The position numbers were made by a program, and so were the translations under genes. DNA of 64,000 bases from a virus: positions 1 to 64,000 of the IMG/VR virus record IMGVR_UViG_3300035701_000016, one strand, 5' to 3'. The notes below the pieces were generated by a model, which worked only from the letters and a program-made list of their open reading frames with translations, was not told the DNA's origin and made no database searches. Below are positions 10,960 through 64,000 of the stretch, piece after piece (the first letter of the stretch is position 1; the number at the start of each line of letters is the position of its first letter).

Positions 10960-11223
10960 TTAGTTCTTCTCTGAACTTCCTGTCGATGAAGTTGGTACAT
11001 TTCTTGGCTCGTAAACATCATCTTTCTCCAATCTTATCATGAATAATATGGTAACTCCCTTGGCATCATTCTTTGCGAACAAGTTCATGATCATATCGTG
11101 CATAGCCACTTCGGATACCTTGGGAATCTCCACGATGCCGTTGCTGAATATGGTTCTACCATCTTTGGTGTTGATCAGGTAGGTTATGAAATATCTTCTC
11201 TTATCTCCGTTATTGCTGCTCAT
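10960..11223 (-). CDS. Hypothetical protein
   Basis: ATGA-coupled to the upstream gene. Confidence 0.6.
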   Translation of the reverse strand: MSSNNGDKRRYFITYLINTKDGRTIFSNGIVEIPKVSEVAMHDMIMNLFAKNDAKGVTILFMIRLEKDDVYEPRNVPTSSTGSSEKN

Positions 11224-46907: not shown

Positions 46908-47220
46908 TTCTATTACCTGATCTTGACTCCAAAAAGCACTGAATCCCAGTTATTGCAAAGAATCCTAGGATCACATCTCCAACAACAGAAGGTACAAACA
47001 CTAGATAACATAACGGTATCGCAAACCATATTCCCAAGCAGAATGGACAGTTTATAAGTTTTGCGAAACTTACGATGAATCTGTTATCACTAACAGATGC
47101 ATGTCTTCCAGATACTATCCTGAGATTACTGAATATGTCAATCGGTCCTTCATCCAAACTTATCAACTCAGCCAAACGGTAGCAAGCGAGACCAGCAAGA
47201 ATTATTCTTACTATATCCAT
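46900..47220 (-). CDS. DUF1360-like membrane protein
   Basis: LACYRLAELISLD, LINCPFCLGIW. Confidence 0.7.
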   Translation of the reverse strand: MDIVRIILAGLACYRLAELISLDEGPIDIFSNLRIVSGRHASVSDNRFIVSFAKLINCPFCLGIWFAIPLCYLVFVPSVVGDVILGFFAITGIQCFLESRSGNRND

Positions 47221-47221
47221 T

Positions 47222-48523
47222 CTACTCTGTTAATGCCTTCTTTATATCCTCAATCTTGGACTCGGTCATGCCAGTAGTAACGGATAGAAATAAATTATCG
47301 GTTGACATGAATTTCTCCCAGGTATCAATTCCTGTAAATTTCAACTTATCAACTGATTTCTTTCCTACTCCTTCTACATCACCTGGATTAATCGGATGAG
47401 CCACAATATCTTCCACCGGTTTTTCTACAGGTTTCAGAGGAGTCTCCTTGACATTGGATTGAGCAGGAACAGGAACAGGAGCGGGACTCGACATATGTCT
47501 TTCCTGAATCTCAAATAAAGGTTTCTGATACTGCATAAGATCCATGATTCCTGTGTTCTTGTTTGTACTCAGATCCCTGTTGTCAATATTTCCTAGATTC
47601 TTGCTCTTACTGAATGTATAAGCAGCTCCGGTAACAGCACCGAAGAAAGTTTGCTTTCCGTCATTCTCTCCCATGTATCTTACAAGAGTCATTCCCTGAG
47701 ATCCGGCTAACCTCATAGGAGAATTCGCATCATACGATGACGGATTGCTACCGGAACTATTTCTGCTTCTTGCTCTACCACCACAGCAACTCATACTAAA
47801 CCTCCCCGAATAAAGATCAGGAAATTCCTCACGCATTAGAAGATGAAATCTTTCCTGCCATTCTGGCGATGTGTTCGTCAGAGTTCTATTCTGTTTCTCT
47901 CTACGGTAGAGATAACCCGCACCTTCTATGTGCAAACCACAGCAACCGACTGATCCTAGTGCTACATTGAATGACCAGTCATCTCTACCAATTCCAAACT
48001 TTTCTCGATAACCGCCACAAAGTTCCCATGCTTTTCTGGGAAACATTATTCCTGAATGTATTATATTTCTCTCCAAAAGCATGTAAAAGTCATAGTCATG
48101 AAATTTCCATTCCTTCTCTACTCTTGCTCCATCATGAAATACTCTCATGTTGTCATAGATTAGATTGGTAGGATTTTTTGACTGTTCCTCATACATCCTT
48201 TCAAGAGACCACCATTCTCTCATGTCATCTGCATCTATTCTGGCTATAAATTCACATTGTGTATTCTGTATCGCCAGATTGCAGGCGGCAGCAGATCCCG
48301 AGTTTACTGGAGTTCTCAGATATTTTACTGAAGAATATTTCTTGACTATTTCCTCAGTATTGTCAGTTGAACAGTCGTCAACAACTATGACTTCCGTGGG
48401 TAACAGATTTTGTACCGGAAGATCACCCAGGGAAGATACCCCACCAAACAATGATGCAAACAAATCTGGAAGATAGATTGCATGATTGTATGACGGAACT
48501 ATAACGGCTAGGGACACATCCAT
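47222..48523 (-). CDS. GT2 glycosyltransferase fused to a C-terminal domain with HhH-like end
   Basis: VIVPSYN, VVDDCSTD, RIDADD, DDW; internal SD+ATG at 47794. Confidence 0.85.
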   Translation of the reverse strand: MDVSLAVIVPSYNHAIYLPDLFASLFGGVSSLGDLPVQNLLPTEVIVVDDCSTDNTEEIVKKYSSVKYLRTPVNSGSAAACNLAIQNTQCEFIARIDADDMREWWSLERMYEEQSKNPTNLIYDNMRVFHDGARVEKEWKFHDYDFYMLLERNIIHSGIMFPRKAWELCGGYREKFGIGRDDWSFNVALGSVGCCGLHIEGAGYLYRREKQNRTLTNTSPEWQERFHLLMREEFPDLYSGRFSMSCCGGRARSRNSSGSNPSSYDANSPMRLAGSQGMTLVRYMGENDGKQTFFGAVTGAAYTFSKSKNLGNIDNRDLSTNKNTGIMDLMQYQKPLFEIQERHMSSPAPVPVPAQSNVKETPLKPVEKPVEDIVAHPINPGDVEGVGKKSVDKLKFTGIDTWEKFMSTDNLFLSVTTGMTESKIEDIKKALTE

Positions 48524-48538
48524 GAGAAATTCCACCTT

Positions 48539-48567
48539 ATGAGTGGGATAACTAATATCCCACTCAT
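48539..48567. repeat. Inverted repeat after the capsid gene
   Basis: ATGAGTGGGATA-ACTAA-TATCCCACTCAT, extendable into the SD of the next gene. Confidence 0.65.
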
Positions 48568-48589
48568 ATAAGGAGGAGACTATGGAACT

Positions 48590-49951
48590 CTATGATCCTA
48601 ATCCGGCATAGTGATAATCCGGAGAATCTTCATCACACGTAATTGTGCAGAAGCTGGTCTCTGGATAGAAGCTGGTAGCCCAAGGATCAGGGCTCAGAAT
48701 CTTTCCGATAACATCGCAACCAACGTCCATAAATCTTGCTTGAGCCCAAGGAGCCCACATCAAGAGACGAGGTTGCATTTCAACTTCTCGGGAAACGCAG
48801 GTCTGAGTTCTGTTGAGCCAGGTGAGCAGACGACCGCCATCAGTATATGAGTACGCAGCTTCCGGATAACTGGCCGGAACACCGGTAAGATCAAGATACT
48901 GACCGGAGATGGTTTTGACGTTGCCAACTCTACCGGTAAGGACATATAGATCGCCATGTCCAGTGACGGCATTGATCATATTCCACTCATATGCTACGAG
49001 AGGAATTTCAAAACCGTCGATGAAGATCTTTCCGTCTCCAAACATACCGCCCATGATGGAGTCACGGAATCGACGACCTTCGTACGAATTCAGAGTAACG
49101 AGAAGATTACCGCTGCTGAAATCTCCAGGACAAACACTCCAGCAGGTGTAAGCATCCAAGAGGCATCGCAGAAGATGCTGAGGAGCCATAATGATGATAT
49201 CACCAACTGACAGAGGCTGTGCAGCCAGAGCAGGAGCCATGCGAATTCTGTCTTTAATCTGACGAACAACCGCGATCAGAACATCAACAAAACCGTAAGT
49301 ATTTCCTACCGGCTTACCGTTCCAAGTAATACCAGCACCGCCAGAAAAATCACGATCATTCCAGTCAATGACGATTGAATCCATTGACCGACAGTGATGT
49401 CCCTTTGAACTATGGTATCCAGTCTTTACCAGAGCCTGGAGTCCGTCGAATTGACCGGTAGTTAGAATACTACCATCAATTAGTTCACGTTTCAGATCCT
49501 GAAGAATGGCTTCGGTAGCAAGCCGCATATCAAACTCAACATCGCTGACGATGGGAGTACCGTCAAGACGATAACGAGGCTGGATCTCACAGAGTTTCAA
49601 ACCTGATCCGGTTCTGGTGGCATTTCGTTCTGGACCGTGACGCCTCAGAAGACCGAAGTCCTCCAGAGTAAAGTCGCAGAAACCCCACTCTACACCATTG
49701 GATTCACCGCACGGATCTGCAATATAGCCGTGTGAACGACCATGCTGAGCAGTTTCCTCTGGCCGGATCCAGGTAATGAAATTCTTTTTGATGATACAAA
49801 CGTTGGTTCTTTCCCATCCTATCCAGTCCATAAACTTGCTGGTTCCCTCGAATGAGAGACTCATCAGGTCCTGGTCTGAGCAGAGATCGAAAAGACCGCA
49901 GCAACCATAGATGGTTGGCAGGGTAGATAAGGTGGTGATTTCGTCGGTCAT
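48590..49951 (-). CDS. Major capsid protein
   Basis: Follows protease/scaffold; GQFDGL motif; SD AGAGGAG before ATG 49951. Confidence 0.75.
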   Translation of the reverse strand: MTDEITTLSTLPTIYGCCGLFDLCSDQDLMSLSFEGTSKFMDWIGWERTNVCIIKKNFITWIRPEETAQHGRSHGYIADPCGESNGVEWGFCDFTLEDFGLLRRHGPERNATRTGSGLKLCEIQPRYRLDGTPIVSDVEFDMRLATEAILQDLKRELIDGSILTTGQFDGLQALVKTGYHSSKGHHCRSMDSIVIDWNDRDFSGGAGITWNGKPVGNTYGFVDVLIAVVRQIKDRIRMAPALAAQPLSVGDIIIMAPQHLLRCLLDAYTCWSVCPGDFSSGNLLVTLNSYEGRRFRDSIMGGMFGDGKIFIDGFEIPLVAYEWNMINAVTGHGDLYVLTGRVGNVKTISGQYLDLTGVPASYPEAAYSYTDGGRLLTWLNRTQTCVSREVEMQPRLLMWAPWAQARFMDVGCDVIGKILSPDPWATSFYPETSFCTITCDEDSPDYHYAGLGS

Positions 49952-50003
49952 TGGTTCTCCTCTACTATTTAAATAAGCACGATTAATTGGTTTCATAGCA
50001 AAC

Positions 50004-51389
50004 CTACTTTATTCTTGACAGGGTATCTTCTGCAATATCATTAAGAGCAGGTTTCTCACCATCATCAGATGTCAATACTGCCGTTCCTGTTTGACGAGGA
50101 CGATACTGAACTCTGGTAACGGGACGACGTGGCATATCATTTTCTACTTCTTTCTTATCCTGTTCCTGAGTTTTCTTGATCTGATCAACAGTTTCGTTGA
50201 ACTTGTTACTAGCAGCTTGACTGGCAGCTCTGAAATCATTGAACTCTTGGTGAAGATCATTCATCATCTTGAGTGCATCATTGAACTGCTCAATCAACGG
50301 AGCAAGTGCCGCAGTAATCTTTCCAGTAACGTCAGCTTTCTCAACTACAGCTGAAACTACTTCCTCATCAATAATCACCGAGTGTTCTTCTTGAACCGGT
50401 TCTACAACCTGCTCAACAATAGGTTCGGTGGGAGGAGTAACGGATTCGATAGCAGCAGGAGCCGGTGTCTCTGTGGCAGTCCTTCTCACCATATCCTGCT
50501 GGATAATCTCATCATTGACTCCGTCGGCCAGGGCAATGAATCGATCAGCCAATTCCGTGTCATCTCCTGCTAACTTTTTGATTGCATCCTTTACTCTTTG
50601 ATCCATATTGATAATCCTCTCTTTTGACTGAAGTGCAGTCAATATACAACAAGCGATTTCTTTCGGAGCTATAGTTATTTCTTCAAATTCTCCATCTGTA
50701 TAGACGGGAACTACCACATCTTTAGCAATTTCTTCCATATGACCTTCAAGAGGCCAGAATGAAATGGAAGCTCCCCAATAATTAGGATCTGCAGCATAAG
50801 CTCTCTGCATGGCATCTCCTAACTCTGAATTATCATACATACCAGATGCTAACAGAACGAATCCATCCCTGGCAACCCAATCAACCGTTCCCATCTTCAG
50901 ATTGTGTTGATGACAGAAGGCAAGATAGGGAAGTTTTTTATCTTCTTCTGTATGACGAATTAGGTTATCATACAACTGAGTAGAGTCAATTGCCCCGTTT
51001 CTGTTAATCACGGCAGTAGATGAAATCATGAACCATCTTGAGCTGCCGTCTTCCATACGTTTGACCATGAATCTGTTTGCCACTGGTTGGAAGACCTCTT
51101 GTACCTGAATAAATGCCCCTATCGTTATTCCAGACGGATCGACAAGGACATCTGCTTTGTACAGAAGACCATCTTTGGCTACTACGCAGTATATCTGCTT
51201 AGTAGAATCATCAACGTAGGCATCAATCAACCAATACCATTCATCCATTTCTTGAAGTTTGGATGAAATTTGCTGATAAATCATGGGCATACTGATTTGT
51301 TCCTGAGGACGAATACTTTTCCAGATCTCGTTGAGAGATCTTTTTATGAACAAACTAAGCTTCGTAAATATTTCCATGTCCTTATCCAT
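50004..51389 (-). CDS. Prohead protease-scaffold fusion
   Basis: NRNGAID, FCHQH..MG, GASISF, EEITI; acidic coiled-coil C-terminus. Confidence 0.7.
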   Translation of the reverse strand: MDKDMEIFTKLSLFIKRSLNEIWKSIRPQEQISMPMIYQQISSKLQEMDEWYWLIDAYVDDSTKQIYCVVAKDGLLYKADVLVDPSGITIGAFIQVQEVFQPVANRFMVKRMEDGSSRWFMISSTAVINRNGAIDSTQLYDNLIRHTEEDKKLPYLAFCHQHNLKMGTVDWVARDGFVLLASGMYDNSELGDAMQRAYAADPNYWGASISFWPLEGHMEEIAKDVVVPVYTDGEFEEITIAPKEIACCILTALQSKERIINMDQRVKDAIKKLAGDDTELADRFIALADGVNDEIIQQDMVRRTATETPAPAAIESVTPPTEPIVEQVVEPVQEEHSVIIDEEVVSAVVEKADVTGKITAALAPLIEQFNDALKMMNDLHQEFNDFRAASQAASNKFNETVDQIKKTQEQDKKEVENDMPRRPVTRVQYRPRQTGTAVLTSDDGEKPALNDIAEDTLSRIK

Positions 51390-51412
51390 AGTTTACTCCT
51401 ATTTATACCTAC

Positions 51413-51441
51413 ATTATACCACTTCAGTATGATACAGACTA
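51413..51441 (-). promoter_or_regulatory. Promoter upstream of the head/tail operon
   Basis: TAGTCT-17nt-TATAAT with extended TG. Confidence 0.55.
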
Positions 51442-51443
51442 GC

Positions 51444-53156
51444 TCAACTTTTTTCCTTTTTGTATTCGTCTATCATGATCTGAAGTTCCTCGACCCTTCT
51501 CTTGAAGGAATGATTATCATCCGTAAATCTTTTTCCTTGTCTTGCTATTATTTCTCGCTCTCTTTCTTTGGGAAGCCACTCTCTGATCTTTTCACCCAGA
51601 TCATCAAAATCTTCCCATACTACCAGATGAACTCCATCTTCAAAACCCATGAAATATTCCATTCCTTCTATCTTTTGTTGGAATACAAAAGCTCCTGCAT
51701 GAAGCATTTGGAATAATCTATTAGACACATAACCTATCGATTTTGGAAATAAATTGTCACCTATAGCAATCTTGGAAGAACGGTAGAGAACGTCTCCTGC
51801 AGAGAAGTCATATATGGTATTTCCGTCTGATCCTATATGAGAAGGCCACTGACCGAATAGACCTACCTTCAGATCCTTTTGTCTTCTCAACAATTCAGCC
51901 ATCTTCTGTCTTCTAGGGTCATAACAATTCCCTAAAAATACAATGTCATATCTGTTCTTATTTATTTCTGAATCGGGAACCCTATTGTAATCCTCATATC
52001 CTATCTGCCAGTATTTATAGTTGATGCCATAATCGACATAATCTTTGGCTATGTCGCCTATGGCAAATGATGCAAGATCGAACATTTTGCATATTTCTTT
52101 GTACTCTTTAGATCCATGAACATTCTCATGATAATCACCGCTCCATGACATGAATATTGTATTCTTATATTCATCTTTCATTCTCATCATGAAGTCATAA
52201 GTAAATATCTTGGGATGTTGGAATTGAACCAAGCAAATATCAGGATTGAAATTATCAATATCATATTCCAATAAATCCAAATGACCCTGATAATTTATTT
52301 CAGATACCAAATATTTCTCTGACAAAGCTTTTCTCAATCCAATCTTGGTTTTTAGCTGATGAGGAAATACTTTATCTTCGTACAGTGGAGCATAGGTAAT
52401 TCTTGGAATTCTTTTGCATGGATTGGTAACGGTAGGAGAAAACTTGATGACTGGACCCAGAACACCATTCCTTGTCCATTTATTTCTCCACTTAGCAGAA
52501 TCAGGATGACCTCCGGTAAGATGGTCAACAGGATTATTTAATTTTCTAAGGTCGTCATCTATCTGGAAATCATTAATACAAGCGCAAGGAATTCCTTCAA
52601 CCTTAAATCCCATCTCTAGAACCTGACAGCTTAAATCTGAATCTCCACCATAGGATACATAATCATTCCATCCGCCACATTTTGTGAGTAACCATCTTGG
52701 AATGATACATACTTGACCATATACTGTAGAAACCTTCTTACCGTTCCTAATAGCTGGCATACTGTCAAGGGTATATTCAGCAGAATGTCTATTTTGATAG
52801 AAACAACCAATTCCTACATCCAGATGATCGTCCATGTAGGCTATGGCAAGTCTTATCCCCTCAAATCTGAACTCAACATCGTCATTCGGCATAATGACAT
52901 ATTTGCCCCTTGACCTATTGAATCCAACATTATATGCCTGAATTAGTCCTAACAAAGCACCCTGCTCTATTAGAACTATGTCATCTTGTTCTCTCATCCA
53001 CTCCAAACTTCCGTCATTGCTTCCACCATCTACCATAACAATCTCGTACGGTATTCCTATACCGACGGATGATCTAACACTATAGATCATTCTCTTAAGA
53101 GATTCAAATCTGTTATATGTTCCTGATACTATTGACACGTATGGATTTTCAATCAT
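51444..53156 (-). CDS. Bifunctional glycosyltransferase (GT2 + GT-B CgeB/Glyco_trans_1_2-like)
   Basis: VDGGSNDGS, NDD, GDSDL; YDIVFLGN, YRSSKIAIG, SNRLFQ. Confidence 0.88.
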   Translation of the reverse strand: MIENPYVSIVSGTYNRFESLKRMIYSVRSSVGIGIPYEIVMVDGGSNDGSLEWMREQDDIVLIEQGALLGLIQAYNVGFNRSRGKYVIMPNDDVEFRFEGIRLAIAYMDDHLDVGIGCFYQNRHSAEYTLDSMPAIRNGKKVSTVYGQVCIIPRWLLTKCGGWNDYVSYGGDSDLSCQVLEMGFKVEGIPCACINDFQIDDDLRKLNNPVDHLTGGHPDSAKWRNKWTRNGVLGPVIKFSPTVTNPCKRIPRITYAPLYEDKVFPHQLKTKIGLRKALSEKYLVSEINYQGHLDLLEYDIDNFNPDICLVQFQHPKIFTYDFMMRMKDEYKNTIFMSWSGDYHENVHGSKEYKEICKMFDLASFAIGDIAKDYVDYGINYKYWQIGYEDYNRVPDSEINKNRYDIVFLGNCYDPRRQKMAELLRRQKDLKVGLFGQWPSHIGSDGNTIYDFSAGDVLYRSSKIAIGDNLFPKSIGYVSNRLFQMLHAGAFVFQQKIEGMEYFMGFEDGVHLVVWEDFDDLGEKIREWLPKEREREIIARQGKRFTDDNHSFKRRVEELQIMIDEYKKEKS

Positions 53157-53926
53157 GGAAGCTCCCTCTCTTCATCATGCTTAGGTCCGGTAAGAAAATC
53201 ACGATATCTTGTAGTAAGAATTGGAATATTTTTGACCCAACTTTCCTGTGCTATATTCCCACTATTGGTTCTGTGAGAAGTACCCCACTCCCATCTTGAG
53301 AAATTTGGAAGACAATACAAACCTGACAACCAACCATGATTAATATATCCCTTTATGCACAAATCAACTTCCTCAGTATTTAGTGGAGCATATATCTCGT
53401 CAAAATAACCCAAAGTTTCCACCATGCTATGTCTCCACATCAAAGGTCCACGATTTACTGCATCTTTTATGTAGAATATATTTCTCTCGGCATCTTGTCT
53501 TTCAATCAATGATTTTCTCCATCCTATCATACCGTTATCTTCCAAATAGAAATTGAAACATGCCTGAGCAGATACGGCAAGAACTTCACTCCATCTAATG
53601 AATGGTTTAAGTAATCTTTCATCAAAATTTTCCTCCACAGCAATCATATCATCTTGCATGTTGAGTATGAACGGTTCTCTGCATACCCTGTATCCAAGAT
53701 TGCACGCTTTATTCTCGAAAACTCCGTTGGATACTAAGATATTGTAATTGAATTTCTTTTCCGTAGATTCTATGAATTCCCCGGTAATTTCCTGAGATCT
53801 ATCCGTACATCCGTCAAATACTATAACTAATTCTTTAACCAATGGAGAACAGTTATAGTATATTCCATTAAGAACATTTAAAATAATGTCCTCATGATTG
53901 AAAACTGTTAGAACAATGCTAATCAT
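53153..53926 (-). CDS. GT2 glycosyltransferase
   Basis: ISIVLTVFN, FDGCTDRS, MQDD, GYFDE, EEVDL. Confidence 0.88.
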   Translation of the reverse strand: MISIVLTVFNHEDIILNVLNGIYYNCSPLVKELVIVFDGCTDRSQEITGEFIESTEKKFNYNILVSNGVFENKACNLGYRVCREPFILNMQDDMIAVEENFDERLLKPFIRWSEVLAVSAQACFNFYLEDNGMIGWRKSLIERQDAERNIFYIKDAVNRGPLMWRHSMVETLGYFDEIYAPLNTEEVDLCIKGYINHGWLSGLYCLPNFSRWEWGTSHRTNSGNIAQESWVKNIPILTTRYRDFLTGPKHDEERELP

Positions 53927-54554
53927 AGATAGTGTTTGCCAAGAGAGCATCTCCGCAGACGCCCCCAGGATAGTCCTCTACCACTCTAAATGACGGTAGT
54001 AGCTCAAGAATTCTAGGGAGGGTACAGAATCCTTTGTATAGCTCAACATTCTCATATTCCGTGAAGAAACCCTTTACCTTGGTTCTGAATATCTCGAGAC
54101 CTCCCATAATCATACGTTCTTCAGCCCCTTGTATGTCAGACCATACAAAGTCTATCACGTCAATTCTATGCAAAGCACAAAATGTGTCCAATCGTATAGT
54201 TGGAACTACATATTCTTCAACAAATGGAATCTGATCGAATACAGTTTTATGCAGCATGGGAACTTGAATAGATCCGGAAGCATCTCCATATCTATTAGGA
54301 TTGGAAGATAATCCACCTGCAACATAAAAAGTAGCTTCACCATCCTCATCAGATATTGCTCCCTCGAATAGTGTAGCTTTAAGATTTAGAGCTCTAATCT
54401 TTTTTATGTTCTCTCTATCAGGCTCGAATAGATACAAATGAACATTAGGCCACATAAGGGAGAAATGTTGTGAATCCTCACCATAATGAGAACCAGCTTC
54501 TACTATGGTAGGATCTGATCTCTTTACAAATTGACGAATCAAATCTTTGTTCAT
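53919..54554 (-). CDS. FkbM-family methyltransferase
   Basis: IVEAGSHYG, FEP, RLDTF, DIQGAE. Confidence 0.88.
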   Translation of the reverse strand: MNKDLIRQFVKRSDPTIVEAGSHYGEDSQHFSLMWPNVHLYLFEPDRENIKKIRALNLKATLFEGAISDEDGEATFYVAGGLSSNPNRYGDASGSIQVPMLHKTVFDQIPFVEEYVVPTIRLDTFCALHRIDVIDFVWSDIQGAEERMIMGGLEIFRTKVKGFFTEYENVELYKGFCTLPRILELLPSFRVVEDYPGGVCGDALLANTIYD

Positions 54555-55192
54555 AGTTTATCCGTTATGTAGATGGCATTCACTCCATCATTTTGAATCA
54601 TATCGTACAAATGAGATTTAGTCCAATTTGTAATCCAATCAAAATTGAATGCAGATTCAATGATCATCATCTTTGGTCTCCAGATATCTGCATTGAATCC
54701 CGAAAGAACAGAAGGTTCACCACCCTCAACATCTATAACGATTAGATCCAGATTGGCTGGAACTTTATGCTGACAAAGTATGGTATCCAATTTCATACCA
54801 TAAGCCTCTATAAATTTTTCTGGAGAATATTTCCAACCCCATCCTCTGGCAAGTTCATTGGCAGCTATACTTTCATTCAGAGTGCAAGCATCATAGAAAT
54901 CTGCGTCACTAAGCCAGAGTTTCACCATTCCTTCGTGATCGGTAGCGGCACATTCAAGAACGATAACTTTATTATTCTTGTGCATTTCTTTGCAATCTTC
55001 CGCCAACTGATGTATGGGCTCAATATAGATACCGTTCCAACCAGCCTCAGCCAATCCCCAAGTATTAGACCAGTTGAAACCATTATGAGCTCCGATCTCC
55101 ACGAAATATCCATCAACCTTATCATTGAAATATTTCGTGTAGAGTTCAAAAAGATTCGTTATCTGACAATCTTTGGCAGATTTATAGCTCAT
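54551..55192 (-). CDS. FkbM-family methyltransferase
   Basis: FVEIGAHNG...SNT, GWNGIYIEP, IDVEGGE. Confidence 0.88.
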   Translation of the reverse strand: MSYKSAKDCQITNLFELYTKYFNDKVDGYFVEIGAHNGFNWSNTWGLAEAGWNGIYIEPIHQLAEDCKEMHKNNKVIVLECAATDHEGMVKLWLSDADFYDACTLNESIAANELARGWGWKYSPEKFIEAYGMKLDTILCQHKVPANLDLIVIDVEGGEPSVLSGFNADIWRPKMMIIESAFNFDWITNWTKSHLYDMIQNDGVNAIYITDKL

Positions 55193-55722
55193 AGCAGATC
55201 CTCACGGTAGGCAACAAATAGATCTCTGGGCTCGGCATGTTCGTTATTCTCCAGAATAATTTTGAACAGTGGATCGATTTCATGGACAGCTTCTATGATA
55301 TCGTCTACCGTAACATCTACCCAATGTTGAAATCCCATCAGACGCATATCATCTGCAAGAATTGTTACTGGAAATCTATGGAGATCTCTGATTGCTCCTA
55401 TCTCTTCAAGTATAGGAGTACCGGCAGTCCAATGTCCCTCATGAGCATCTAACCAGAACATAGTAGGATACTCTAGATAAGGAATTAGCTCCATTAGAAC
55501 TGAAACAGAATCTCCGGTCAGAAGAGTTACCTGGGGATAATCTTTCAATCTATCCAGGGCAAATTGATGCCATTCTGTACTGATATCGATAGAGTAGATT
55601 GTGTCAAATCCTGCATCAACGGCGGTTTGTACCGTATTTCCGGTCTCTGTTCCAGTTTCCACAAAAATCTTGGACTGCCCTTTATATTTCAACAAAATAT
55701 CCAGAGGAAGACTTGCTGACAT
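55189..55722 (-). CDS. Class I SAM-dependent methyltransferase-like protein
   Basis: FVETGTETG, GDS, FWLDAH, ADDMR. Confidence 0.78.
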   Translation of the reverse strand: MSASLPLDILLKYKGQSKIFVETGTETGNTVQTAVDAGFDTIYSIDISTEWHQFALDRLKDYPQVTLLTGDSVSVLMELIPYLEYPTMFWLDAHEGHWTAGTPILEEIGAIRDLHRFPVTILADDMRLMGFQHWVDVTVDDIIEAVHEIDPLFKIILENNEHAEPRDLFVAYREDLL

Positions 55723-55734
55723 TTTATTTCTCCC

Positions 55735-55767
55735 CGTACTGGTCGGCCTGGATAGACCGACCAGTAC
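55735..55767. repeat. 11-bp inverted repeat
   Basis: GTACTGGTCGG/CCGACCAGTAC. Confidence 0.6.
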
Positions 55768-55778
55768 ATATATCCCGA

Positions 55779-56105
55779 CTAAACCGGAGGTTCCACCGGA
55801 GGAGGAACAGGATTGGCTAAAACAGCAGCCTGAATAGCGGCACTTTTCTTATCCAGATCGTCAGCAAGTTTCAGCATCAAGATAGGATCGTAGGCATTGT
55901 TCTTGATGTAAATTGACAGATCTGTAACGAGAGTGATGATACTATCAGCAGCACCCTCAATTGCCGTAACACGAGTAACTAGAAGATCTACTTCACCAGC
56001 CATTTTTCTAATCTCCTTTGCCATAAAAGAAATATTGGTTTCAATTCGATCCAATTCATTGAGGATCTTACGAATCTTTTCGTACAACCATATTTTCATC
56101 ATCAC
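55779..56105 (-). CDS. Hypothetical coiled-coil protein
   Basis: SD GGAGG; second possible start at 56003. Confidence 0.7.
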   Translation of the reverse strand: MMMKIWLYEKIRKILNELDRIETNISFMAKEIRKMAGEVDLLVTRVTAIEGAADSIITLVTDLSIYIKNNAYDPILMLKLADDLDKKSAAIQAAVLANPVPPPVEPPV

Positions 56106-56112
56106 CTCCTGT

Positions 56113-56229
56113 TCAATCAGGTTCTACATTATCATCCTCAAACTGATCATCACCACAGTAATCATCATTCTCGGAGTCTACGGTAGAACACTCGTCAAGA
56201 TCAGTCTGGGAAGAATCATTCGGACCCAT
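56113..56229 (-). CDS. Small highly acidic peptide (38 aa)
   Basis: SD GGAG; MGPNDSSQTDLDECSTVDSENDDYCGDDQFEDDNVEPD; fills the gap in the operon. Confidence 0.55.
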   Translation of the reverse strand: MGPNDSSQTDLDECSTVDSENDDYCGDDQFEDDNVEPD

Positions 56230-56231
56230 AG

Positions 56232-59198
56232 CTACTCCCATAAATTTGCCGAGATTAGTAATACTTCTTCATCATCATTTCTTCTCTTCTTCTTCTCCCA
56301 CCAGAATGGTTCCGCATGTCCAGGAGTTACTGCTACGATAGGAGCAGAAGGTGAAGGAGATGCGCTCATGGAAGAAGATATGGACGGTGATGCACTGACA
56401 CTAGCAGAGATGGATGAACTTATCGATGGAGATGCACTTACCGAAGCACTCTTAGAAGAAGATATGGATGGAGAGGCAGAAATTGAAGCACTAATGGAAG
56501 CACTAACAGAAGCACTCTTAGAGGCACTAATTGATACACTTACAGAAGCACTAATAGAAGCACTCAGAGAAGCACTGACAGAAGCACTTATGCTAGGTGA
56601 GGCAGATATTGAGGCAGACATGCTAGCTGATTTGGAAGCACTTATCGATGCACTTACAGAAACAGAAATGCTAGCAGAAATACTAGAAGAAATACTTTCA
56701 GAAATACTAGGTGAAGCACTAACAGATGCAGAAATAGAAGGACTAGCTGAAATTGAAGAAGATAAACTAGCTGAAACAGAGGCTGAAATAGATGGACTAG
56801 CAGATATACTCGCAGATATACTTGCACTTATTGATACTGAAACTGAAGCTGACTCTGATGCTGATACACTAGCACTAATAGATGCACTTTCACTGGTGGA
56901 TACAGAAGCAGAAACCGATGCGGAAATAGAAGCACTAATTGAGGGTGATGCAGAAATTGAAGCCGATTCACTAGACGATACACTGGCTGAGACACTAGCA
57001 CCAATACTAGGTGAAGAACTAACACTAGAAGAAATACTAGGAGAAGCAGATACACTAGCAGAAATAGAGGCACTTATACTCGCAGATACCGAAGCACTAA
57101 TACTTGGTGAAGCCGAGATAGATGCTGAAACAGAAGCACTTACAGAAGCTGAAATACTAAGACTCGCACTAACTGATGAAGATACACTGGCACTAACACT
57201 AGCAGACTTAGATGATGATACAGAAGAGGATATTGAGGGAGAAGCACTAAGTGAAGCACTTAGTGATGCTGATACGGAAGCTGATATACTAAGACTAGCT
57301 GAAACAGAAGAAGAAATAGAAGCGCTTACTGAAGCACTTATACTCAGACTTGCAGAGATAGATGTACTGACCGAAGCGGATATACTAGCACTTATACTGG
57401 GAGAAGCGGATATACTAGCACTAAGAGAAGCACTAACAGAAGAGGATATAGAAGGAGATGATGATACTGATGAACTAACAGAGGAACTCACACTAGCAGA
57501 AATAGAGGGTGAGGCTGATACGGAAGCACTAACACTAGCACTTGTGGAAGCACTTATTGATGGAGAAGCTGAAACTGATCCAGAAACAGACGATGAAATA
57601 CTAGCTGATAAAGATGCAGATACAGATGCACTGATTGAAGGAGATGCAGATACTGATGCACTAATTGATGGACTTGCACTGATACTTGCACTGATGCTAG
57701 GACTAGCTGAAATACTTGCACTCTCAGAAGCACTTTCGGAAGCTGAGATAGAAGGAGATGCACTGATACTAGCAGAGACGGATGCAGATATGGAAGCAGA
57801 TATACTAGCACTTTTCGAAGCTGATATAGAAGCCGAAATTGAAGCACTTTCTGATGCACTGATTGATGGGGAAGCCGAAATAGATGCGCTCTCACTTGCT
57901 GATACTGAAGCGGATATACTGGGACTAGCACTTATTGATGCGCTTTCACTTGCAGATATAGAAGAACTTATACTAGGACTTGCTGACACTGAAGCTGAGA
58001 TGGAAGCACTTACTGAGGCGCTTATACTTGGAGATGCTGAGATACTGGCGCTTTCAGAAGCAGAAATAGAAGCACTAATTGAAAGTGAAGCAGAAATACT
58101 GGCCGAGACTGATGCACTTACGCTGGACGAGATACTTGGGCTGGCACTGATACTTGCAGAAATAGATGCACTAATACTTGCACTTATAGATAGACTAGCA
58201 CTAACACTAGCAGATACTGACGCTGATATTGAAGCACTTATACTAGCCGAAATACTCGGACTTGCCGATACACTAGCACTCACTGAAGCACTAACTGACG
58301 CCGAGATGGAAGGACTTGCACTTACTGACGCCGATTTCGAAGAAGAAACTGAGGAAGATATACTAGGAGAAGCAGAAATTGAAGAGGATACCGAAGAACT
58401 TATTGAAGGTGATGAAGATACAGATGATGAAACTGAAGCACTAATACTAGGAGATGCACTTACGGATTTACTTTCACTTGCTGATACTGAAGATGATGCA
58501 CTTCCCACCACTCCCTTGAATGACTTCTTCATCATGTGGGGGAAGAATATCCTAGGATGGCTGGCAATCGGAACAGTCCCCTGCTCAACCATCTTAGCCC
58601 CGTTCATCAGATCGGGTTCATCCCCACTACTATCCCCACGAATTAGGGGATAGTAGGCGACCAGACTTTCGGGTTTGACAAATAGCGGAGAGTAACCTAC
58701 TGCTAGTTGCTTAATATCCGCCAAGGTTAAAGCCACATTCCAGAAACCGACTTCGGCCAAAATCGCTTCTGCCGCCACTTTCCAATGAGAAGAGGTCGAA
58801 TACAACATAGTACCAAGTGTAGTTCTGCTTACAGTTGTGGCCGGAACTCGACTGGTAGTTTCATCCCCACCGCCTACTCCATTTGTATAACCAGTTCGTA
58901 AAGTAGCAGAGCTAAATACTGCGGCTGCATGATTCCACGCATTAACATTTGTAGCAGGCCCATAAGACGAACTGCTCGCACCTGCCGCCCAAGTTGTCGC
59001 TCCTACTGTTCCCGTTGTTGTTATAAGTCTAAGGCCAAACCCATCAGGGGCAGCATTTGTCGAAGTCAGATATACCAAGGACTGTTCTTGTGTGAATCCT
59101 GATGGATATACCCAACACGCCATAGTCAGCGGCGTGGCTGTAATTAAGCCAGTCGCATTAAGAAAATAATTCGAGGTACTATGAACACCTCGTGCCAT
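56232..59198 (-). CDS. LamG/concanavalin-like domain + ~720-aa serine-rich repeat protein
   Basis: [34 protein letters not shown]; then (S-x) dipeptide repeats [13 protein letters not shown]. Confidence 0.85.
56345..58500 (-). repeat. Degenerate Ser-X coding repeat
   Basis: Continuous SAS[I/V/P/E/K/L] units with diversified codons. Confidence 0.9.
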
Positions 59199-59698
59199 TA
59201 TGTTTCCTTGACTTCTACTGCAAGCAATTCGGCATCCGTAGTTACGTCATCCGTACCTGCTGACCCATCCGCATCCCGGCGAACTTTCAGGCGGAACATT
59301 TCACCAGCCGCCAAACTATCCATTTGTGCCCCATTGGTGAATGTGATTGTTACGAGAGTTGTAACTCCACTTGTTCCGTTTGGATTACCTGCCGCACTCT
59401 GAACTGCGGCAAAACTATCCGCATCCATATCCAGAGAAGCATCATCCATACGCTCAATAGATACCGACCAATAGGCGCTGCCCGATGTGGCCGATGAGAA
59501 CATGACATGCAAGTAGACTGTCAGTCCTCCACCCGCATAATTACGTGGCAGGATACCGGAGAAAACCGCTTCTTCGTCCGCCGCACCATCAAAGTCAAGA
59601 ACTGGATGATAGTTACGTAAATCCAGTGTGGCATAGATAGTTGCCGGAGGTTCATTACAATAAGGATTAAATACTGCTAAAGTATCACCGCTTGCCAT
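59198..59698 (-). CDS. Hypothetical beta-rich protein (virion-associated?)
   Basis: TAATG-coupled; [18 protein letters not shown]. Confidence 0.7.
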
Positions 59699-59985
59699 TA
59701 GTCTACCTCCCCGAATACCTGTTTGAGGATATTCAGATTAAAACGCATGAGAATTACCGCTACCAACAACAGCGACTTTTGAGAAGTAGTTGCAACGGTA
59801 CGAAATGGGGTTGGAAGAGTGTTATTATAACTGACTGAGTTGGCATCCACCCAGGCATCCGCCGCCACAATCGCCGCCGTGAATTGGGTCTTTGTAAATG
59901 CTCCAGTCTGTTCGCGCAGGTTGGACCAATAACGTGAAAGACCTCGTTTTATTCTATCAATATCCACAGTTGATAATGTTGCCAT
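59698..59985 (-). CDS. Hypothetical protein
   Basis: SD GGAG before ATG 59985. Confidence 0.7.
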   Translation of the reverse strand: MATLSTVDIDRIKRGLSRYWSNLREQTGAFTKTQFTAAIVAADAWVDANSVSYNNTLPTPFRTVATTSQKSLLLVAVILMRFNLNILKQVFGEVD

Positions 59986-60127
59986 TGTATCATCTCCATA
60001 TGCTGATTGAACGACTTCTTGAAGTGTGTCTCCACGAGTATGACAATCCAAGTATAAGATATTAATTACCGATGTTTGTTCTGGACGATAATATCCAGTT
60101 TTCCAATAATGATCCCAACTGAACCTC

Positions 60128-61042
60128 CTATGGAATAGATTCCCATCCAGGAACAGGCCAGAACTTCTCTACCAACCATGATAGAGAATGAATTTGTTTA
60201 TCCCATTTTCCTTCGAAAAATAATTCTCTACATTGTTTCTTCGAGCGATTTACCTGTTTCTGCGACATATCGTACGGAAAACTGAAGTCTCCACCTTGAG
60301 TTCTAAACAGATGAGCATAATATGTTTTGTGATCAACCATGACCCTTCCACCACTAAGCCACGTCTTAGCAGCTACTTCTATGCCCTGAGATCCCCATGA
60401 TCCAAAACCTTCATCACATATATTCAAATCAAACCACTTATCTTTTGTCAACATAAAACATGATCCCTGAAGAGACATGGTCTCGGTAAGATCTCCTTGT
60501 CCCTCAGGTCTCTTTTTAAAATCATTAAAGTACTGGAAATGCGGTTCTGAATCGAAACAATACGAAGTAGACTGAGGATTCTCTTTAGCCTTCCAAATAA
60601 TCTTTCTGTAAAGATTTGTACCACCACAAACTTCACACTTCTCAGGGGTAGGACCCTGATATGTTCTTTTTCCACATTTCCTACACTTCCAGTCGAAAGC
60701 CCATAAGTTACGCATGATCGGAACTATTGTCCAATCATCCTGTATATCCTCTAACAATACTCTATCAAAACCCTGGGCAAACGAGCAATGAGCATCAGCT
60801 TTCATGATATATTTGGAATCAGCCAACTTAACTCCATCGTTACAGGCTGCTCTCTGTCCTATAGATACGGGATGAAAGAGTACGGTAACATCAGCATTCT
60901 GATCGATAGGAGGATCCGCCCATTGTCCATCCAGAACTACTATCACTTCAGTATTGGCTTCCTTGTGCTGAAGGATATCCTGAACAGTTTTAGCCACAAA
61001 CATTTCGTTTCTGGACGGAATAACTACACTCAAATCATGCAT
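60128..61042 (-). CDS. GT2 glycosyltransferase (ppGalNAc-T-like motifs) with Zn-ribbon insert
   Basis: LSVVIPSRNE, DAHC (DxH), WGSQGIE, AHLFR; CRKC...CEVC. Confidence 0.85.
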   Translation of the reverse strand: MHDLSVVIPSRNEMFVAKTVQDILQHKEANTEVIVVLDGQWADPPIDQNADVTVLFHPVSIGQRAACNDGVKLADSKYIMKADAHCSFAQGFDRVLLEDIQDDWTIVPIMRNLWAFDWKCRKCGKRTYQGPTPEKCEVCGGTNLYRKIIWKAKENPQSTSYCFDSEPHFQYFNDFKKRPEGQGDLTETMSLQGSCFMLTKDKWFDLNICDEGFGSWGSQGIEVAAKTWLSGGRVMVDHKTYYAHLFRTQGGDFSFPYDMSQKQVNRSKKQCRELFFEGKWDKQIHSLSWLVEKFWPVPGWESIP

Positions 61043-61640
61043 CTTTCCTCAGTTTGGAAATGATAACTTTTCCGGGATAATCTTCTGTAACATAATTTGT
61101 GAATTTTTCGAATAACGGATCAATAAGCGTAGCATGTCTACTCCATATGAAAAACATACCTCCTGAGATGGGAGATATATTCCATCTATGTTCATTAGCA
61201 TAGTTATGAAGTTTACCGTTATCTACATAGTGTCTAAGATATATCCAACCTCCAACTTTGCAAACTCTATACATTTCTCTAATAGCCAGAAGAGGATTTC
61301 CACAATGATCCAGAGAATTTACGCAATGAACTATGTCAAATTGTTCATTATCATACGTCAATAGTCTCATATCCTGCTTCTCTATCCTAATCTCAGGAAT
61401 AACTCCCTTTTCAACCAGCATAGAATTATATTCATCTGCTAGAAGATCGGATGGATACAGATGAATTTCTGTCTCAGGCCAAGTTGATCCAGTAGTAGAA
61501 AACATACCAGCTCCAAGATCAGCAATATCTACTATCTTCTTATTTCCTATCATCTCCCCGAAATAATAGTCCAACTGAAATATTTTATTGAATTGCTTCT
61601 CTTTGTAAGGAAGCTTATTTCTGTAGAATCTTAAGGTCAT
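61035..61640 (-). CDS. Class I SAM-dependent methyltransferase
   Basis: IADLGAG, FDIVHCVNSLDH, EMYRVCKVGG. Confidence 0.85.
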   Translation of the reverse strand: MTLRFYRNKLPYKEKQFNKIFQLDYYFGEMIGNKKIVDIADLGAGMFSTTGSTWPETEIHLYPSDLLADEYNSMLVEKGVIPEIRIEKQDMRLLTYDNEQFDIVHCVNSLDHCGNPLLAIREMYRVCKVGGWIYLRHYVDNGKLHNYANEHRWNISPISGGMFFIWSRHATLIDPLFEKFTNYVTEDYPGKVIISKLRKDA

Positions 61641-62124
61641 TCAAGAACTCCAGAGAACACATCTTACTTATGACAGTGGTATGAGGATTGAATATATTAT
61701 AGTCAAATCTATATTTAAATCTTGAGTATATTCCGGAATAATGATAGAAATTATCTTCCTTAGGATTGGAATCATGCAGAACTATGTAATCTACCAAGTC
61801 TTCTATCCTTACAGCTAGATAGGATCTAAATTCCATAGGATTTACATCTATAATTCCTATATCAAAATGTCTACTAAGATCAATAGTTGTCCAATCAGCG
61901 ATTAAATGAGTTTCATGATGAGTATTATTATTTTTTCCGAATAAATTTAAGTATTTCTCATAATTCTCATATGAAACCAAATCCCTATCCTGAGAAACAC
62001 AAGCCCAGAATAGAAGTGGTGTACTATATAATCCCATACCTAATTCAAGAACATTTCCAGTAGTATGCTCTAGAAGTTTTAAAAGAACGGGTATGTGAGA
62101 ACCCCACCTCATTGTAATTTTCAT
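61615..62124 (-). CDS. Methyltransferase-like protein
   Basis: VLELGMGLYST, IVLHDS. Confidence 0.72.
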   Translation of the reverse strand: MKITMRWGSHIPVLLKLLEHTTGNVLELGMGLYSTPLLFWACVSQDRDLVSYENYEKYLNLFGKNNNTHHETHLIADWTTIDLSRHFDIGIIDVNPMEFRSYLAVRIEDLVDYIVLHDSNPKEDNFYHYSGIYSRFKYRFDYNIFNPHTTVISKMCSLEFLNDLKILQK

Positions 62125-62771
62125 ACTAGACCTAACTTTGTTCTAACAACTCTGGTCGTGCCCCAATACGGTAGGGATCTGGTGGTTTCACCCGCGATAG
62201 TCAGAGTATTGGCTCGCAATCCCAGTCCAGTCTTTATACTCACTACGGGAATATCCGTACCATACCAATTCCAATTCTGATTCAAATTCCTGAAAGGATT
62301 GGTAGGATAATGTCCATTCAACCACAGAGGCTTTCCTTCCAATTCCTTTTCCAACAGATCCAAATAGTATTCTCTGCCTATAATTTGAGCTCCTTCACAC
62401 CATCTCTTCTTGAAGAAGTATCCTCTATGATGCTTCAGAATCCAAACATTACTATATCTATATATTGAATCTAGTTTGCTTGGTTCTATGTCAAAATAGT
62501 CTCTGGGATAAAGATTGTCTGCCTCTGCTGATATAACAAATGGAGTAAATATACTTTGACAGGCTATCTGAATTTGTCTGTATAGATTATGATCATTGGC
62601 TCCAACATCTCCCACACAGATATTTTCTCCGAAATCAATCTGTTTCTGAGATACTGACAGAATAGGAAATCCGGGATTCATTCTCATGAGAACTTTTTGT
62701 ATTTTTTTCTCGAAATTTTCATCCTCTCTGTTGGATGTATAGTAGATAATAGTTGCGTCGTTCTTATTCAT
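62121..62771 (-). CDS. GT-A-like glycosyltransferase (putative), paralog of 62768-63526
   Basis: TIIYYTSN, DFGENICVGDVG, AEAD.LYP. Confidence 0.62.
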   Translation of the reverse strand: MNKNDATIIYYTSNREDENFEKKIQKVLMRMNPGFPILSVSQKQIDFGENICVGDVGANDHNLYRQIQIACQSIFTPFVISAEADNLYPRDYFDIEPSKLDSIYRYSNVWILKHHRGYFFKKRWCEGAQIIGREYYLDLLEKELEGKPLWLNGHYPTNPFRNLNQNWNWYGTDIPVVSIKTGLGLRANTLTIAGETTRSLPYWGTTRVVRTKLGLV

Positions 62772-63526
62772 ATAGAGTGACCGCAATAAGGACACTGATT
62801 GACCATATGATTTTCATCATATAATTTCATAACCTGATCAGCTGTACCCCACGGAACCAACTCAGTTCCTCTCAACGGACCGAGAGCCTTATTTTCACCA
62901 ACCGGATGCTCTCTACCTACCGGAGTAGATACATATCCAAGAGCAAGTGGATGAGAGAAGACAACCATTGGTCGTCCACCCCAACCTTCCTCGGTAGAAA
63001 TTGGTTTCAATCCTAACTTTCTATCGTATCGTCCTGGTTCTCCACAGAATTGGGTGTCATAGGCAGGAAATTTTTCAAGACGTTCAGTTAGAGATCTTAC
63101 CAAAAGATCTCTGGTACATATTAGACTAAATATTATCATTCTGTGTCGCCATGAGAATACCATAGGTTTTGACCATGTGAATATACTCCACTTATTCATA
63201 TCGTACCATAAAGTATCGTCACTGATTGGTCTTCCCTGAAAATGCTGTCTAGGATATAGAACATCATCTTCAGCCATAGCCACATATTTCGTTTTTGCAG
63301 CAATCGCACCTGTAAGGATCTGCCAGTAGATATTGCGATTGGATCTACCGATATCTCCTACGCAGATGTTTTCTCCGAAATCCATAGGTTTATGAGATAC
63401 AGATATCAAAGGAGTATCCTGTATAGCTTCCTTTAGAACCCTTTTAGTATTATCTACAAAGTAGGGATTGTGTTCATCCAGATAATTACTGGTATAATAT
63501 ATGATTGTTAGATCAGTATGTATCAT
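62768..63526 (-). CDS. GT-A-like glycosyltransferase (putative)
   Basis: TIIYYTSN, DFGENICVGDIG, AEDDVLYP. Confidence 0.65.
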   Translation of the reverse strand: MIHTDLTIIYYTSNYLDEHNPYFVDNTKRVLKEAIQDTPLISVSHKPMDFGENICVGDIGRSNRNIYWQILTGAIAAKTKYVAMAEDDVLYPRQHFQGRPISDDTLWYDMNKWSIFTWSKPMVFSWRHRMIIFSLICTRDLLVRSLTERLEKFPAYDTQFCGEPGRYDRKLGLKPISTEEGWGGRPMVVFSHPLALGYVSTPVGREHPVGENKALGPLRGTELVPWGTADQVMKLYDENHMVNQCPYCGHSI

Positions 63527-63999
63527 AATTTAATCCAGAACCAACTTGGAACTCTTTCCTTCGTAAGATACCAGGGATCAATTCTGTGTTCCTTGACATA
63601 GGCATCCACAGCAGTTATTACTCCAAATTCCTGTCTATTGAAGTAGTCATGTCCAGACACTATTCCACCAGATCTTACTTTCCTATTCCATTGAATGATA
63701 TCTGTAACAGCATAGTCAAACGTATGATTGGCATCTATGTAAACAAAATCTAAACTACCATCCTCAAACTCAGGAATGGCATCCATGCTACTACATTTCA
63801 TGAAAGTAACGTTATGATGTCTAAGTAACTTCCTAGCCTGATGAAAATGCTCATCATGAAAACCACTGTAGTCCCAGGGATCATTTTCGTCATCTTCCCA
63901 CAAATCTATACAATACAATTTAACTCCTGGTACACTATCGCAAATATATCGTGAGAATTTACCTTTGGCTACACCAATCTCAACTCCAGTCTTGTATCC
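63523..63999 (-). CDS. Class I SAM methyltransferase (Methyltransf_24-like), 5' end outside the window
   Basis: Frame open to the edge: GVEIGVAKG ... LDFVYIDANH ... GGIVSGHDY. Confidence 0.85.
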   Translation of the reverse strand, partial: GYKTGVEIGVAKGKFSRYICDSVPGVKLYCIDLWEDDENDPWDYSGFHDEHFHQARKLLRHHNVTFMKCSSMDAIPEFEDGSLDFVYIDANHTFDYAVTDIIQWNRKVRSGGIVSGHDYFNRQEFGVITAVDAYVKEHRIDPWYLTKERVPSWFWIKL

Positions 64000-64000
64000 C

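Follow-up and report, generated by a model that had tools for sequence, protein, structure and literature searches.

A mobile cassette of GT27-like glycosyltransferases and methyltransferases accompanies serine-repeat proteins in uncultured phages

The late gene block and its enzyme array

The DNA analysed here (the window) comprises bases 1-64000 of the IMG/VR virus record IMGVR_UViG_3300035701_000016, which has 75,103 bp, is rated complete and carries 127-bp direct terminal repeats. The minus strand carries every gene from ~8 kb to ~69 kb, and genes are named in the following by their lower coordinate. The late block runs from the terminase through a portal-like gene, an enzyme array and scaffold-like and capsid-like genes to the tape measure and a Sipho_Gp37 protein. 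Between terminase and tape measure, 18.3 kb (47222-65478) hold seven glycosyltransferase (GT) genes with eight GT domains, six firm methyltransferase (MT) genes and one weak MT gene, all co-oriented and coupled; neighbours mostly overlap (by 1-32 bases) or sit at most 126 bases apart. With its seven methyltransferases the array is one of the largest. Part of it, the genes 60128-65478, is a mobile cassette that occurs in IMG/VR contigs with many backbones, and this cassette accompanies proteins with serine at alternate positions (Ser-X proteins), one of which is encoded within the array.

The cassette comprises eight genes on the minus strand, the last two of them outside the window. The GT27-like GT2 enzyme GT2b (60128-61042; PF00535) carries a four-Cys insert and is followed by a Methyltransf_11 methyltransferase (61035-61640; PF08241, E 8.9e-10) and by u169 (61615-62124), a protein with a GxG motif and an O-methyltransferase-like class I fold. 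The latter has no Pfam match, but its Atlas model reaches TM scores of 0.73-0.82 against Methyltransf_3/24 clusters. Pfam does not match GTA (62768-63526) or its paralogue at 62121-62795 either, which is 33% identical and has E-A-D in place of the motif E-D-D. The GTA family has more than 426 homologues; the AlphaFold2 (AF2) model built from 20 members (pLDDT 90.7) adopts a GT-A fold, and Foldseek matches it to K4CP, SpsA, WrtF and A64R of PBCV-1 with probability 1.0 and TM scores of ~0.45. Within the E-D-D motif of the family E86 and D88 are invariant and D87 is nearly so. According to these models, 62768 and 62121 most probably encode GT-A-fold glycosyltransferases of an unnamed family. The next gene, a Methyltransf_24 methyltransferase (PF13578, E 1.2e-19), occupies 63523-64000 in the window and extends to 64056. 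A second Methyltransf_24 copy recognised by Pfam (64053-64601) and GT2a, another GT27-like GT2 enzyme (64576-65478; PF00535, E 5.2e-15), complete the cassette beyond the window; the Methyltransf_24 profile found no informative match in the PDB.

A trio of genes at 53153-55192 probably belongs with the mobile cassette. It consists of the GT2 enzyme GT2c (53153-53950; PF00535, E 3.4e-9) and two FkbM-family methyltransferases at 53919-54554 (PF05050, E 4.4e-14, and TIGR01444) and 54551-55192 (PF05050, E 2.7e-14, and TIGR01444), all on the minus strand. Both FkbM proteins exceed the curated cut-offs of PF05050 and TIGR01444 (53.4 and 68.3 bits for 53919, 54.1 and 46.1 bits for 54551), and in two further contigs (L051 and L052) an FkbM pair likewise adjoins the cassette. 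Besides FkbM, NCBIfam gave no specific names for the array proteins.

The gene at 56232-59198 (minus strand) encodes a fibre-like protein of 988 residues. A Laminin_G_3 (LamG) domain (residues 9-163, E 7.7e-11) is followed by a Ser-X tract of 719 residues (233-951), in which serine stands at alternate positions. The tract forms 359 dipeptides, arranged as 250 + 109 with a single register shift, and contains 385 serines; the X positions are filled mainly by A (128), I (80), V (58) and P (32). The DNA of the gene has only short tandem repeats, which match to 70-80%, and makes use of six Ser codons, so the serine periodicity is conserved in the protein sequence. The protein ends in a charged (acidic) tail of 37 residues, the motif of which is common only to its homologue in a related genome, G001; as a shared C-terminal anchor motif the tail was discarded, because among 118 other Ser-X proteins a single one showed a related pattern. 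On the plus strand a 906-residue open frame (55933-58653) results from reading the Ser repeat in antisense and is most likely not a gene.

An earlier note on this DNA had described GT and MT genes in the head region that are co-oriented and mostly tightly coupled and surround a giant Ser-rich repeat protein. The genes are indeed there, recognised by Pfam in most cases and by predicted folds for 62768, 62121 and 61615, with 55189 as the weak member; all lie on the minus strand, and the repeat protein has the LamG domain and the dipeptides given above. The designation as a head module stands in part: terminase, tape measure and Sipho_Gp37 could be identified, while portal, scaffold and capsid are positional only.

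An array of GTs and MTs could in principle modify the phage DNA. This would fit the label "DNA methyltransferase" of phrog_2675, a weak N6_N4_Mtase match (E 0.0078) and a weak HhH match of the GT 47222 (E 0.0032), the last two below cut-off. However, the methyltransferases have Methyltransf_24, O-methyltransferase-like and FkbM folds, the array genes are part of the particle module and go together with Ser-X proteins, and a separate putative nucleotide-tailoring operon at ~22.7-26.8 kb has a GT2 of its own. We therefore consider a role in DNA modification extremely improbable.

A mobile cassette accompanies Ser-X proteins

Viral loci were collected from IMG/VR with the 62768 and 60128 families as seeds, and a locus was scored positive if a protein on the same strand had serine at alternate positions. 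For 60128 the sample was drawn from the best 80 of 384 matching contigs, and loci of at least 12 kb were counted. A Ser-X protein was found in 58 of the 67 loci seeded on 62768 (60 of 67 with a looser filter that accepts any stretch of 100 residues with 40% Ser+Thr or more) and in 44 of the 50 seeded on 60128, including 17 of the 18 that lack the 62768 family. As a control served 43 viral loci that were retrieved by the capsid-like protein of the phage (36-70% identity), of which two encode a Ser-X protein; Fisher tests of the enrichment gave p ~1e-17 to 1e-19. By a crude grouping the loci represent 29 backbones, at least 18 of which have the pairing with a Ser-X protein.

The genes recur in the order GT2a, (Methyltransf_24), 62768-type GT, 61615-type MT, (Methyltransf_11), GT2b, where brackets denote members that may be missing. 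The pair GT2a and GT2b is the most constant part, while among the 67 loci seeded on 62768 the 61615 type is present in 34 and the Methyltransf_11 type of 61035 in 15. The commonest backbone are phages of ~40 kb, in which the cassette follows the major capsid gene; the profile of this capsid protein matches gp6 in PDB entry 8e16 (E 2.4e-10) as well as phrog_267. Directly after the capsid gene these phages encode a protein of ~300 residues with a conserved N-domain of 110 residues and a Ser-X tail, and the N-domain found no informative match in the PDB. In contig L065 the cassette lies between such a post-capsid Ser-X protein and a second one, which contains a tail-protein domain. Behind a fused 60128-type enzyme this contig has genes for nucleotide-sugar enzymes, namely a DegT aminotransferase, an RmlD-like and a UDP-sugar dehydrogenase-like protein (L065:11255-15405), which suggests that its version of the glycan contains amino or acidic sugars.

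Beyond the 384 contigs in IMG/VR that match the 60128 family, more than 3,800 relatives are found in the protein collection. The few source names encountered among homologues are metagenome-assembled genomes (MAGs) labelled Candidatus Woesebacteria and Candidatus Levybacteria. Neither 62768 nor 60128 had a match among 50,697 GenBank phage records, and a full-text search of the published literature returned no description of a pairing of Ser-X proteins with GT27-like enzymes in phages.

The candidate initiating enzymes resemble GT27

GT27 enzymes are the initiators of mucin-type O-glycosylation. When 60128 alone was compared to all PDB sequences, GalNAc-T1 was found at E 1.7e-7, and a profile of its 17-member family matched polypeptide GalNAc-transferases only (E 1.5e-10 to 8.6e-5), which makes these the only solved relatives of the family if PDB matches at E ≤ 1e-4 are considered. 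The 15 best matches, without exception polypeptide GalNAc-transferases, comprise T1, T2, T4, T7, T9, T10 and the "Glycosyl transferase" entry 8uhv, which we take to be a GalNAc-transferase of Toxoplasma gondii. The DAHC motif of 60128 aligns with LDAHCE of GalNAc-T1, with D83 and H85 invariant in the 17 members, and its WGSQGIE...AHLFR aligns with WGGENLE...GHVFR, which includes the Gal/GalNAc-T motif WGGENxE. Invariant are also W216, G217, Q219, G220 and H244; the His aligned to H244 is reportedly the third Mn ligand of GalNAc-T1. The second enzyme, 64576, is a paralogue of 60128 (32% identity, E 9e-50) that has kept DAHC and the third His and does not have the four-Cys insert.

In the 304 residues of 60128 we found no ricin-type lectin domain, membrane anchor, further Pfam domain or hydrophobic segment. 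Since lectin domain and membrane anchor are absent, 60128 cannot be regarded as a full GT27 member. Judged from their sequences, both 60128 and 64576 most resemble the eukaryotic polypeptide GalNAc-transferases (GT27). In the ~40-kb phages GT2b has ~550 residues and its second half carries the motifs of the 62768 type, so that it is a fusion of both enzyme types. The proposal of the earlier note that the DxH enzyme 60128 is a candidate initiator gains support from the GT27 matches, which support 60128 as the best candidate for an initiator of protein O-glycosylation.

A core layer conserved without Ser-X genes

Other genes of the array belong to a core layer that is conserved independently of Ser-X genes, namely 47222 together with its DUF1360 neighbour, 51444 and 55189, all on the minus strand. 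The GT2 enzyme 47222 (47222-48535; PF00535, E 6.3e-24) comes directly after the capsid-like gene and is coupled to a small DUF1360 membrane protein (46900-47220; PF07098, E 1.5e-9) with a single long hydrophobic stretch at residues 48-97, which leaves room for two membrane spans. Gene 51444 (51444-53156) encodes a two-domain GT in which Pfam recognises GT2 and Glyco_trans_1_2. Gene 55189 (55189-55722) is weakly Methyltransf_24-like, with E 0.11 for PF13578 over its full length; probable homologues by position and length in two genomes (G005 and G006) match Methyltransf_24 at E 4e-4 to 1e-3. Alignment of 61615 and 55189 with the Methyltransf_24 family by hhalign was topologically sensible but non-significant.

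Capsid-like and scaffold-like genes were present in all 43 loci of the capsid family. A 47222-type GT stands directly after the capsid gene in 36 of them and the DUF1360 protein is found in 30, in both cases also where the capsid identity falls to 36%; distant relatives have a frame of 600-1100 residues with two GT2 domains in the slot of 47222. The two-domain GT 51444 (9 of 43) and the MT-like 55189 (8 of 43, there adjoining the portal-like gene) are restricted to the closest relatives, and most loci with 51444 have no Ser-X gene. Since the core enzymes are kept without a Ser-rich gene, 47222, 51444 and 55189 should act on something else.

Cassette and Ser-rich protein occur together within the capsid family only in this genome and in G001. 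In G001, one of the two control loci with a Ser-X protein, the cassette occupies the same slot, between portal and 55189, with the order GT2a, Methyltransf_24, GT2b, 62768-type GT and a protein of 1,213 residues with three Ser-X tracts. The complete relative G002, which has neither cassette nor Ser-rich gene, passes from the portal directly to the 55189 homologue. Close relatives with and without the cassette, together with core GTs that do not depend on the repeat, offer a clean natural comparison. The earlier note had assumed a single pathway for the whole array, which is not what we find, because 47222, 51444 and 55189 are conserved without a Ser-rich gene. It had also asked whether GT arrays occur independently of such a gene; this is true for the core GTs and not for the cassette. 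A distant contig of the capsid family (L039, 26% complete) encodes a pair of Ser-rich proteins (L039:13937-18785) downstream of its capsid gene, and no GT2 and no cassette gene are found on its 19 kb.

The array might also build or alter a glycan of the host envelope, leading to surface conversion, exclusion of other phages or release, with the repeat protein being unrelated to it. PHROG labels 47222 and 51444 as "GtrB-like O-antigen conversion", weak NCBIfam matches point to GTs for exopolysaccharide and teichuronic acid, and 47222 is coupled to the DUF1360 membrane protein. These matches, however, reflect generic GT2 similarity below curated cut-offs. Judged by their hydrophobicity, the GTs and MTs of the array are free of membrane segments, and Pfam found no flippase, polymerase or Gtr-type partner in the module. 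Moreover, the array genes lie inside the late particle operon, and the GT27-like enzymes point to protein acceptors. For the array as a whole we regard this explanation as quite unlikely; it stays live for the 47222/DUF1360 pair only.

Proposed function of the cassette and possible placement of the fibre

We think it reasonably probable that the enzymes of the mobile cassette attach O-glycans to the Ser-X stalk of a LamG-tipped fibre and methylate them, and that the core is a separate, older layer with another target. The earlier note had named the Ser-X protein as the likely acceptor, and the co-occurrence with the cassette far above the level in control loci argues for it. Gene content, folds, motifs and co-occurrence were computed; acceptor, order of the steps, methylation target and attachment to the virion are what we infer. 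Glycosylation would take place in the cytoplasm of the infected cell during late infection. The soluble paralogues 60128 and 64576 would put the first sugar on serines of the stalk, and the GT-A enzymes 62768 and 62121, probably together with the GT2 enzyme 53153, would extend it. The methyltransferases 63523, 64053, 61615 and 61035 and the FkbM pair 53919/54551 may then O-methylate hydroxyl groups of the sugars. The product would be a long fibre of bottle-brush form that resists proteases, with the stalk as an extended spacer for a lectin-like tip, and the C-terminal end of the fibre would be joined to the particle. The core enzymes 47222/DUF1360 and 51444 may have a particle protein as target; a glycan linked to the membrane is less likely.

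Several points weigh against this proposal. The loci within the sampled collection are related, so that the counts overstate their independence, and six to nine loci per sample have no Ser-X gene, although most of these are short contigs. The likeness to GT27 consists of matches of 30-45 bits to the catalytic core, and the lectin domain of the animal enzymes is absent. Here the fibre gene has head genes as neighbours, but in the contig L144 described below it forms a fusion with a tail baseplate domain. Finally, X in the Ser-X tract is mostly A, I or V, and the tract might form an amphipathic beta structure even if it bears no sugars.

The last point also bears on another explanation, in which the Ser-X stalk is an unglycosylated structural spacer and the enzymes glycosylate other particle proteins, for instance the capsid or the tail tube, as in mycobacteriophages. 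The composition of the tract is compatible with beta strands, the 988-residue protein has weak Pfam matches to Bactofilin and beta-barrel families, and the core GTs 47222 and 51444 stay beside the capsid-like gene in relatives without a Ser-X protein. The cassette enzymes, unlike those of the core, are gained and lost jointly with Ser-X genes. In addition, the capsid-like, the tube-like and the other proteins of the module have no Ser/Thr-rich tail that could serve as acceptor (maximum S+T of 0.33 per 30 residues), although single sites escape such a scan. Altogether, we hold a bare spacer to be unlikely and keep the glycosylated stalk as the preferred reading.

For the fibre, which may sit on the head or on the tail, a comparison is offered by L144, which has homologous tail genes. 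Behind its tape measure and a Dit-like gene follow GT2a, a GT2 with a Glyco_transf_7C match and GT2b, then two small homologues of proteins encoded in the window and a protein of 909 residues that combines Laminin_G_3, a Ser-X tract and Sipho_Gp37. The two small proteins have 117 and 166 residues in the window and form a fibre module with the 988-residue protein. The 166-residue protein (59198-59698, minus strand) is directly coupled to the fibre gene and is conserved as a companion of LamG + Ser-X proteins: it is 39% identical (E 1e-27) to the product of the gene immediately upstream of the LamG-SerX-Gp37 gene in L144, and homologues are also found in L110 and L131. The 117-residue protein (59698-60051, minus strand) is the upstream partner with homologues in relatives, and in L141, L142 and L144 its homologue stands before that of the 166-residue protein. 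Sipho_Gp37, which is fused to the LamG-Ser-X protein in L144, is encoded by a separate gene in the phage of the window. Because the LamG-Ser-X protein of L144 ends in a tail baseplate domain, by analogy the C-terminus would be the anchor of the fibre in the phage of the window, and the LamG domain its free tip. The earlier note had pictured an O-glycan coat on a mucin-like virion scaffold; that such a coat lies on the capsid is not supported, and in L144 the LamG and Ser-X parts are borne by a Sipho_Gp37 protein of the tail baseplate.

A glycosylated Ser-X protein could also be made without entering the particle, as a decoy, adhesive or matrix component that is freed at lysis. The 988-residue protein has no recognisable anchor domain besides its 37-residue tail. 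It also lacks a hydrophobic N-terminus or signal peptide, a membrane segment and LPxTG. In relatives, however, Ser-X tracts are found on proteins of a tail-protein PHROG, on Sipho_Gp37 proteins and on the product of the gene right after the major capsid gene. A role outside the particle is accordingly quite improbable, and a glycosylated fibre on the particle remains the preferred reading.

Whether the cassette represents a cytoplasmic, mucin-type-like O-glycosylation system in hundreds of uncultured phages, with relatives of GT27 as initiators and encoded Ser-X stalks as acceptors, we regard as evenly balanced. Under this interpretation the phage described here would make a whisker that is coated with methylated sugars and ends in a lectin-like tip, for which a rough estimate gives a length of up to ~200 nm if extended. 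If the system is general, many environmental phages make mucin-like glycoprotein fibres with the help of prokaryotic or viral enzymes related to those that initiate mucin glycosylation in animals; this could affect how the particles adsorb, how stable they are and how they interact with hosts and grazers. Serine at alternate residues would be a simple acceptor code that could serve glyco-engineering.

Comparison with known glycosylation systems

To our knowledge, glycosylation of phage particles is documented only in a few actinobacteriophages. Virion glycosylation was reportedly described by Freeman et al. in 2023 for the mycobacteriophage Che8 and for cluster O phages such as Corndog. Two reports that cite this work state that mycobacteriophages encode GTs that modify their own particle proteins, with the C-termini of capsid and tail-tube subunits as acceptors, and that an O-methyltransferase is present in cluster O (PMC12619734, PMC11600133). 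As in the array described here, phage-encoded GTs and MTs lie with the particle genes. The mycobacteriophages have few GTs, whereas seven GT and seven MT genes are found here, together with GT27-like initiator candidates and a dedicated fibre with its 719-residue Ser-X tract, in a phage known only from uncultured material.

The eukaryotic GT27 enzymes share with the phage enzymes the GT-A core with DxH, the Gal/GalNAc-T-type motif and the third His, as well as long Ser-rich tracts as acceptors, which are putative in the phage. In contrast to them, the phage enzymes are soluble and have ~300 residues or are fused to a GT-A half, they possess neither a ricin-type lectin domain nor a membrane anchor, and 60128 has the four-Cys insert.

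In Gram-positive bacteria dedicated GTs of the cytoplasm, which are encoded nearby (SdgA/SdgB for the SD-repeats), attach O-glycans to serine-rich repeat proteins (SRRPs; GspB, Fap1, SraP) and to the Ser-X repeats of Sdr proteins. The SRRPs resemble the fibre in having Ser-X repeats of hundreds of residues beside a folded binding domain, which is Laminin_G_3 here. They depend on GT4 enzymes and an export system, whereas the phage enzymes are of GT-A types and are encoded in a late operon; by Pfam and sequence, the module contains no GtfA/GtfB-type GT4 pair, SecA2/SecY2, signal peptide or LPxTG.

The chlorovirus PBCV-1 likewise encodes soluble GT-A enzymes (A064R), and the 62768 model matches the GT domain of A64R in Foldseek with E ~2e-5. 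A064R also has a methyltransferase domain and methylates capsid glycans. Different from the phage system, the glycans of this eukaryotic virus are atypical N-linked ones on the major capsid protein, and there is no Ser-X acceptor.

Neighbouring genes and minor observations

The remaining genes of the late block also lie on the minus strand. The large terminase (67626-68966; phrog_3717 and PF04466) and the portal-like gene (65478-67616) are located outside the window. The portal-like gene, the scaffold- or protease-like gene (50004-51389) and the capsid-like gene (48590-49996) were without PHROG or Pfam match, apart from a single weak coiled-coil match of 50004, and their putative roles follow from position and conservation. 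Profile searches of the PDB gave no relative of the portal-like protein and were empty for the capsid-like protein with 6-member and 26-member profiles. One of the 26 members of the capsid-like family matches a PHROG "major head protein" (E 0.0065), and an hhalign comparison with the capsid proteins confirmed in the ~40-kb phages did not reach significance. From an alignment of 6 sequences AF2 gave a model of the capsid-like protein that was discarded as unusable (pLDDT 30).

The capsid-like protein is Cys-rich, with C96, C285, C289 and C400 invariant among 26 relatives. In the capsid-like gene of G001 (95% complete) TAG occurs twice in frame at a distance of 30 bases (L003:10124 and L003:10154), and the two codons align with Ser and Trp of the protein from the window; TAG is also the true stop of this gene. 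They may represent a variant of the assembly or of the population, or a broken gene, and recoding is not indicated. The only cellular match of the capsid family, a clue to the host, is a 3-kb contig in a MAG of Chloroflexota, which is too short to be trusted.

Next to the fibre gene, a protein of 108 residues (55779-56105, minus strand) has only sub-threshold Pfam matches (E ≥ 0.05), including the coiled-coil family DUF7310 at E 0.2, and looks helical when judged by eye. A promoter scan was indistinguishable from shuffled sequences, and near the fibre gene no terminator was convincing.

The tail module contains the tape measure (38607-42533; PF20155 and several PHROGs) and the Sipho_Gp37 tail protein (36521-37666, Pfam), both on the minus strand. 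A conserved protein of 487 residues in this module (43416-44879, minus strand) has a C-terminal Ycf48/BNR-like beta-propeller (PDB profile, E 1.5e-13), which is unusual in the tube/sheath slot right before a 186-residue protein and the tape measure. Further away, an open reading frame of 381 codons (9876-11021, minus strand) has a weak match to GH25 lysozyme (E 0.0019, below cut-off), and its 22-residue Ser-Pro/Ser-X linker near the C-terminus is the sole other Ser-X tract in the genome.

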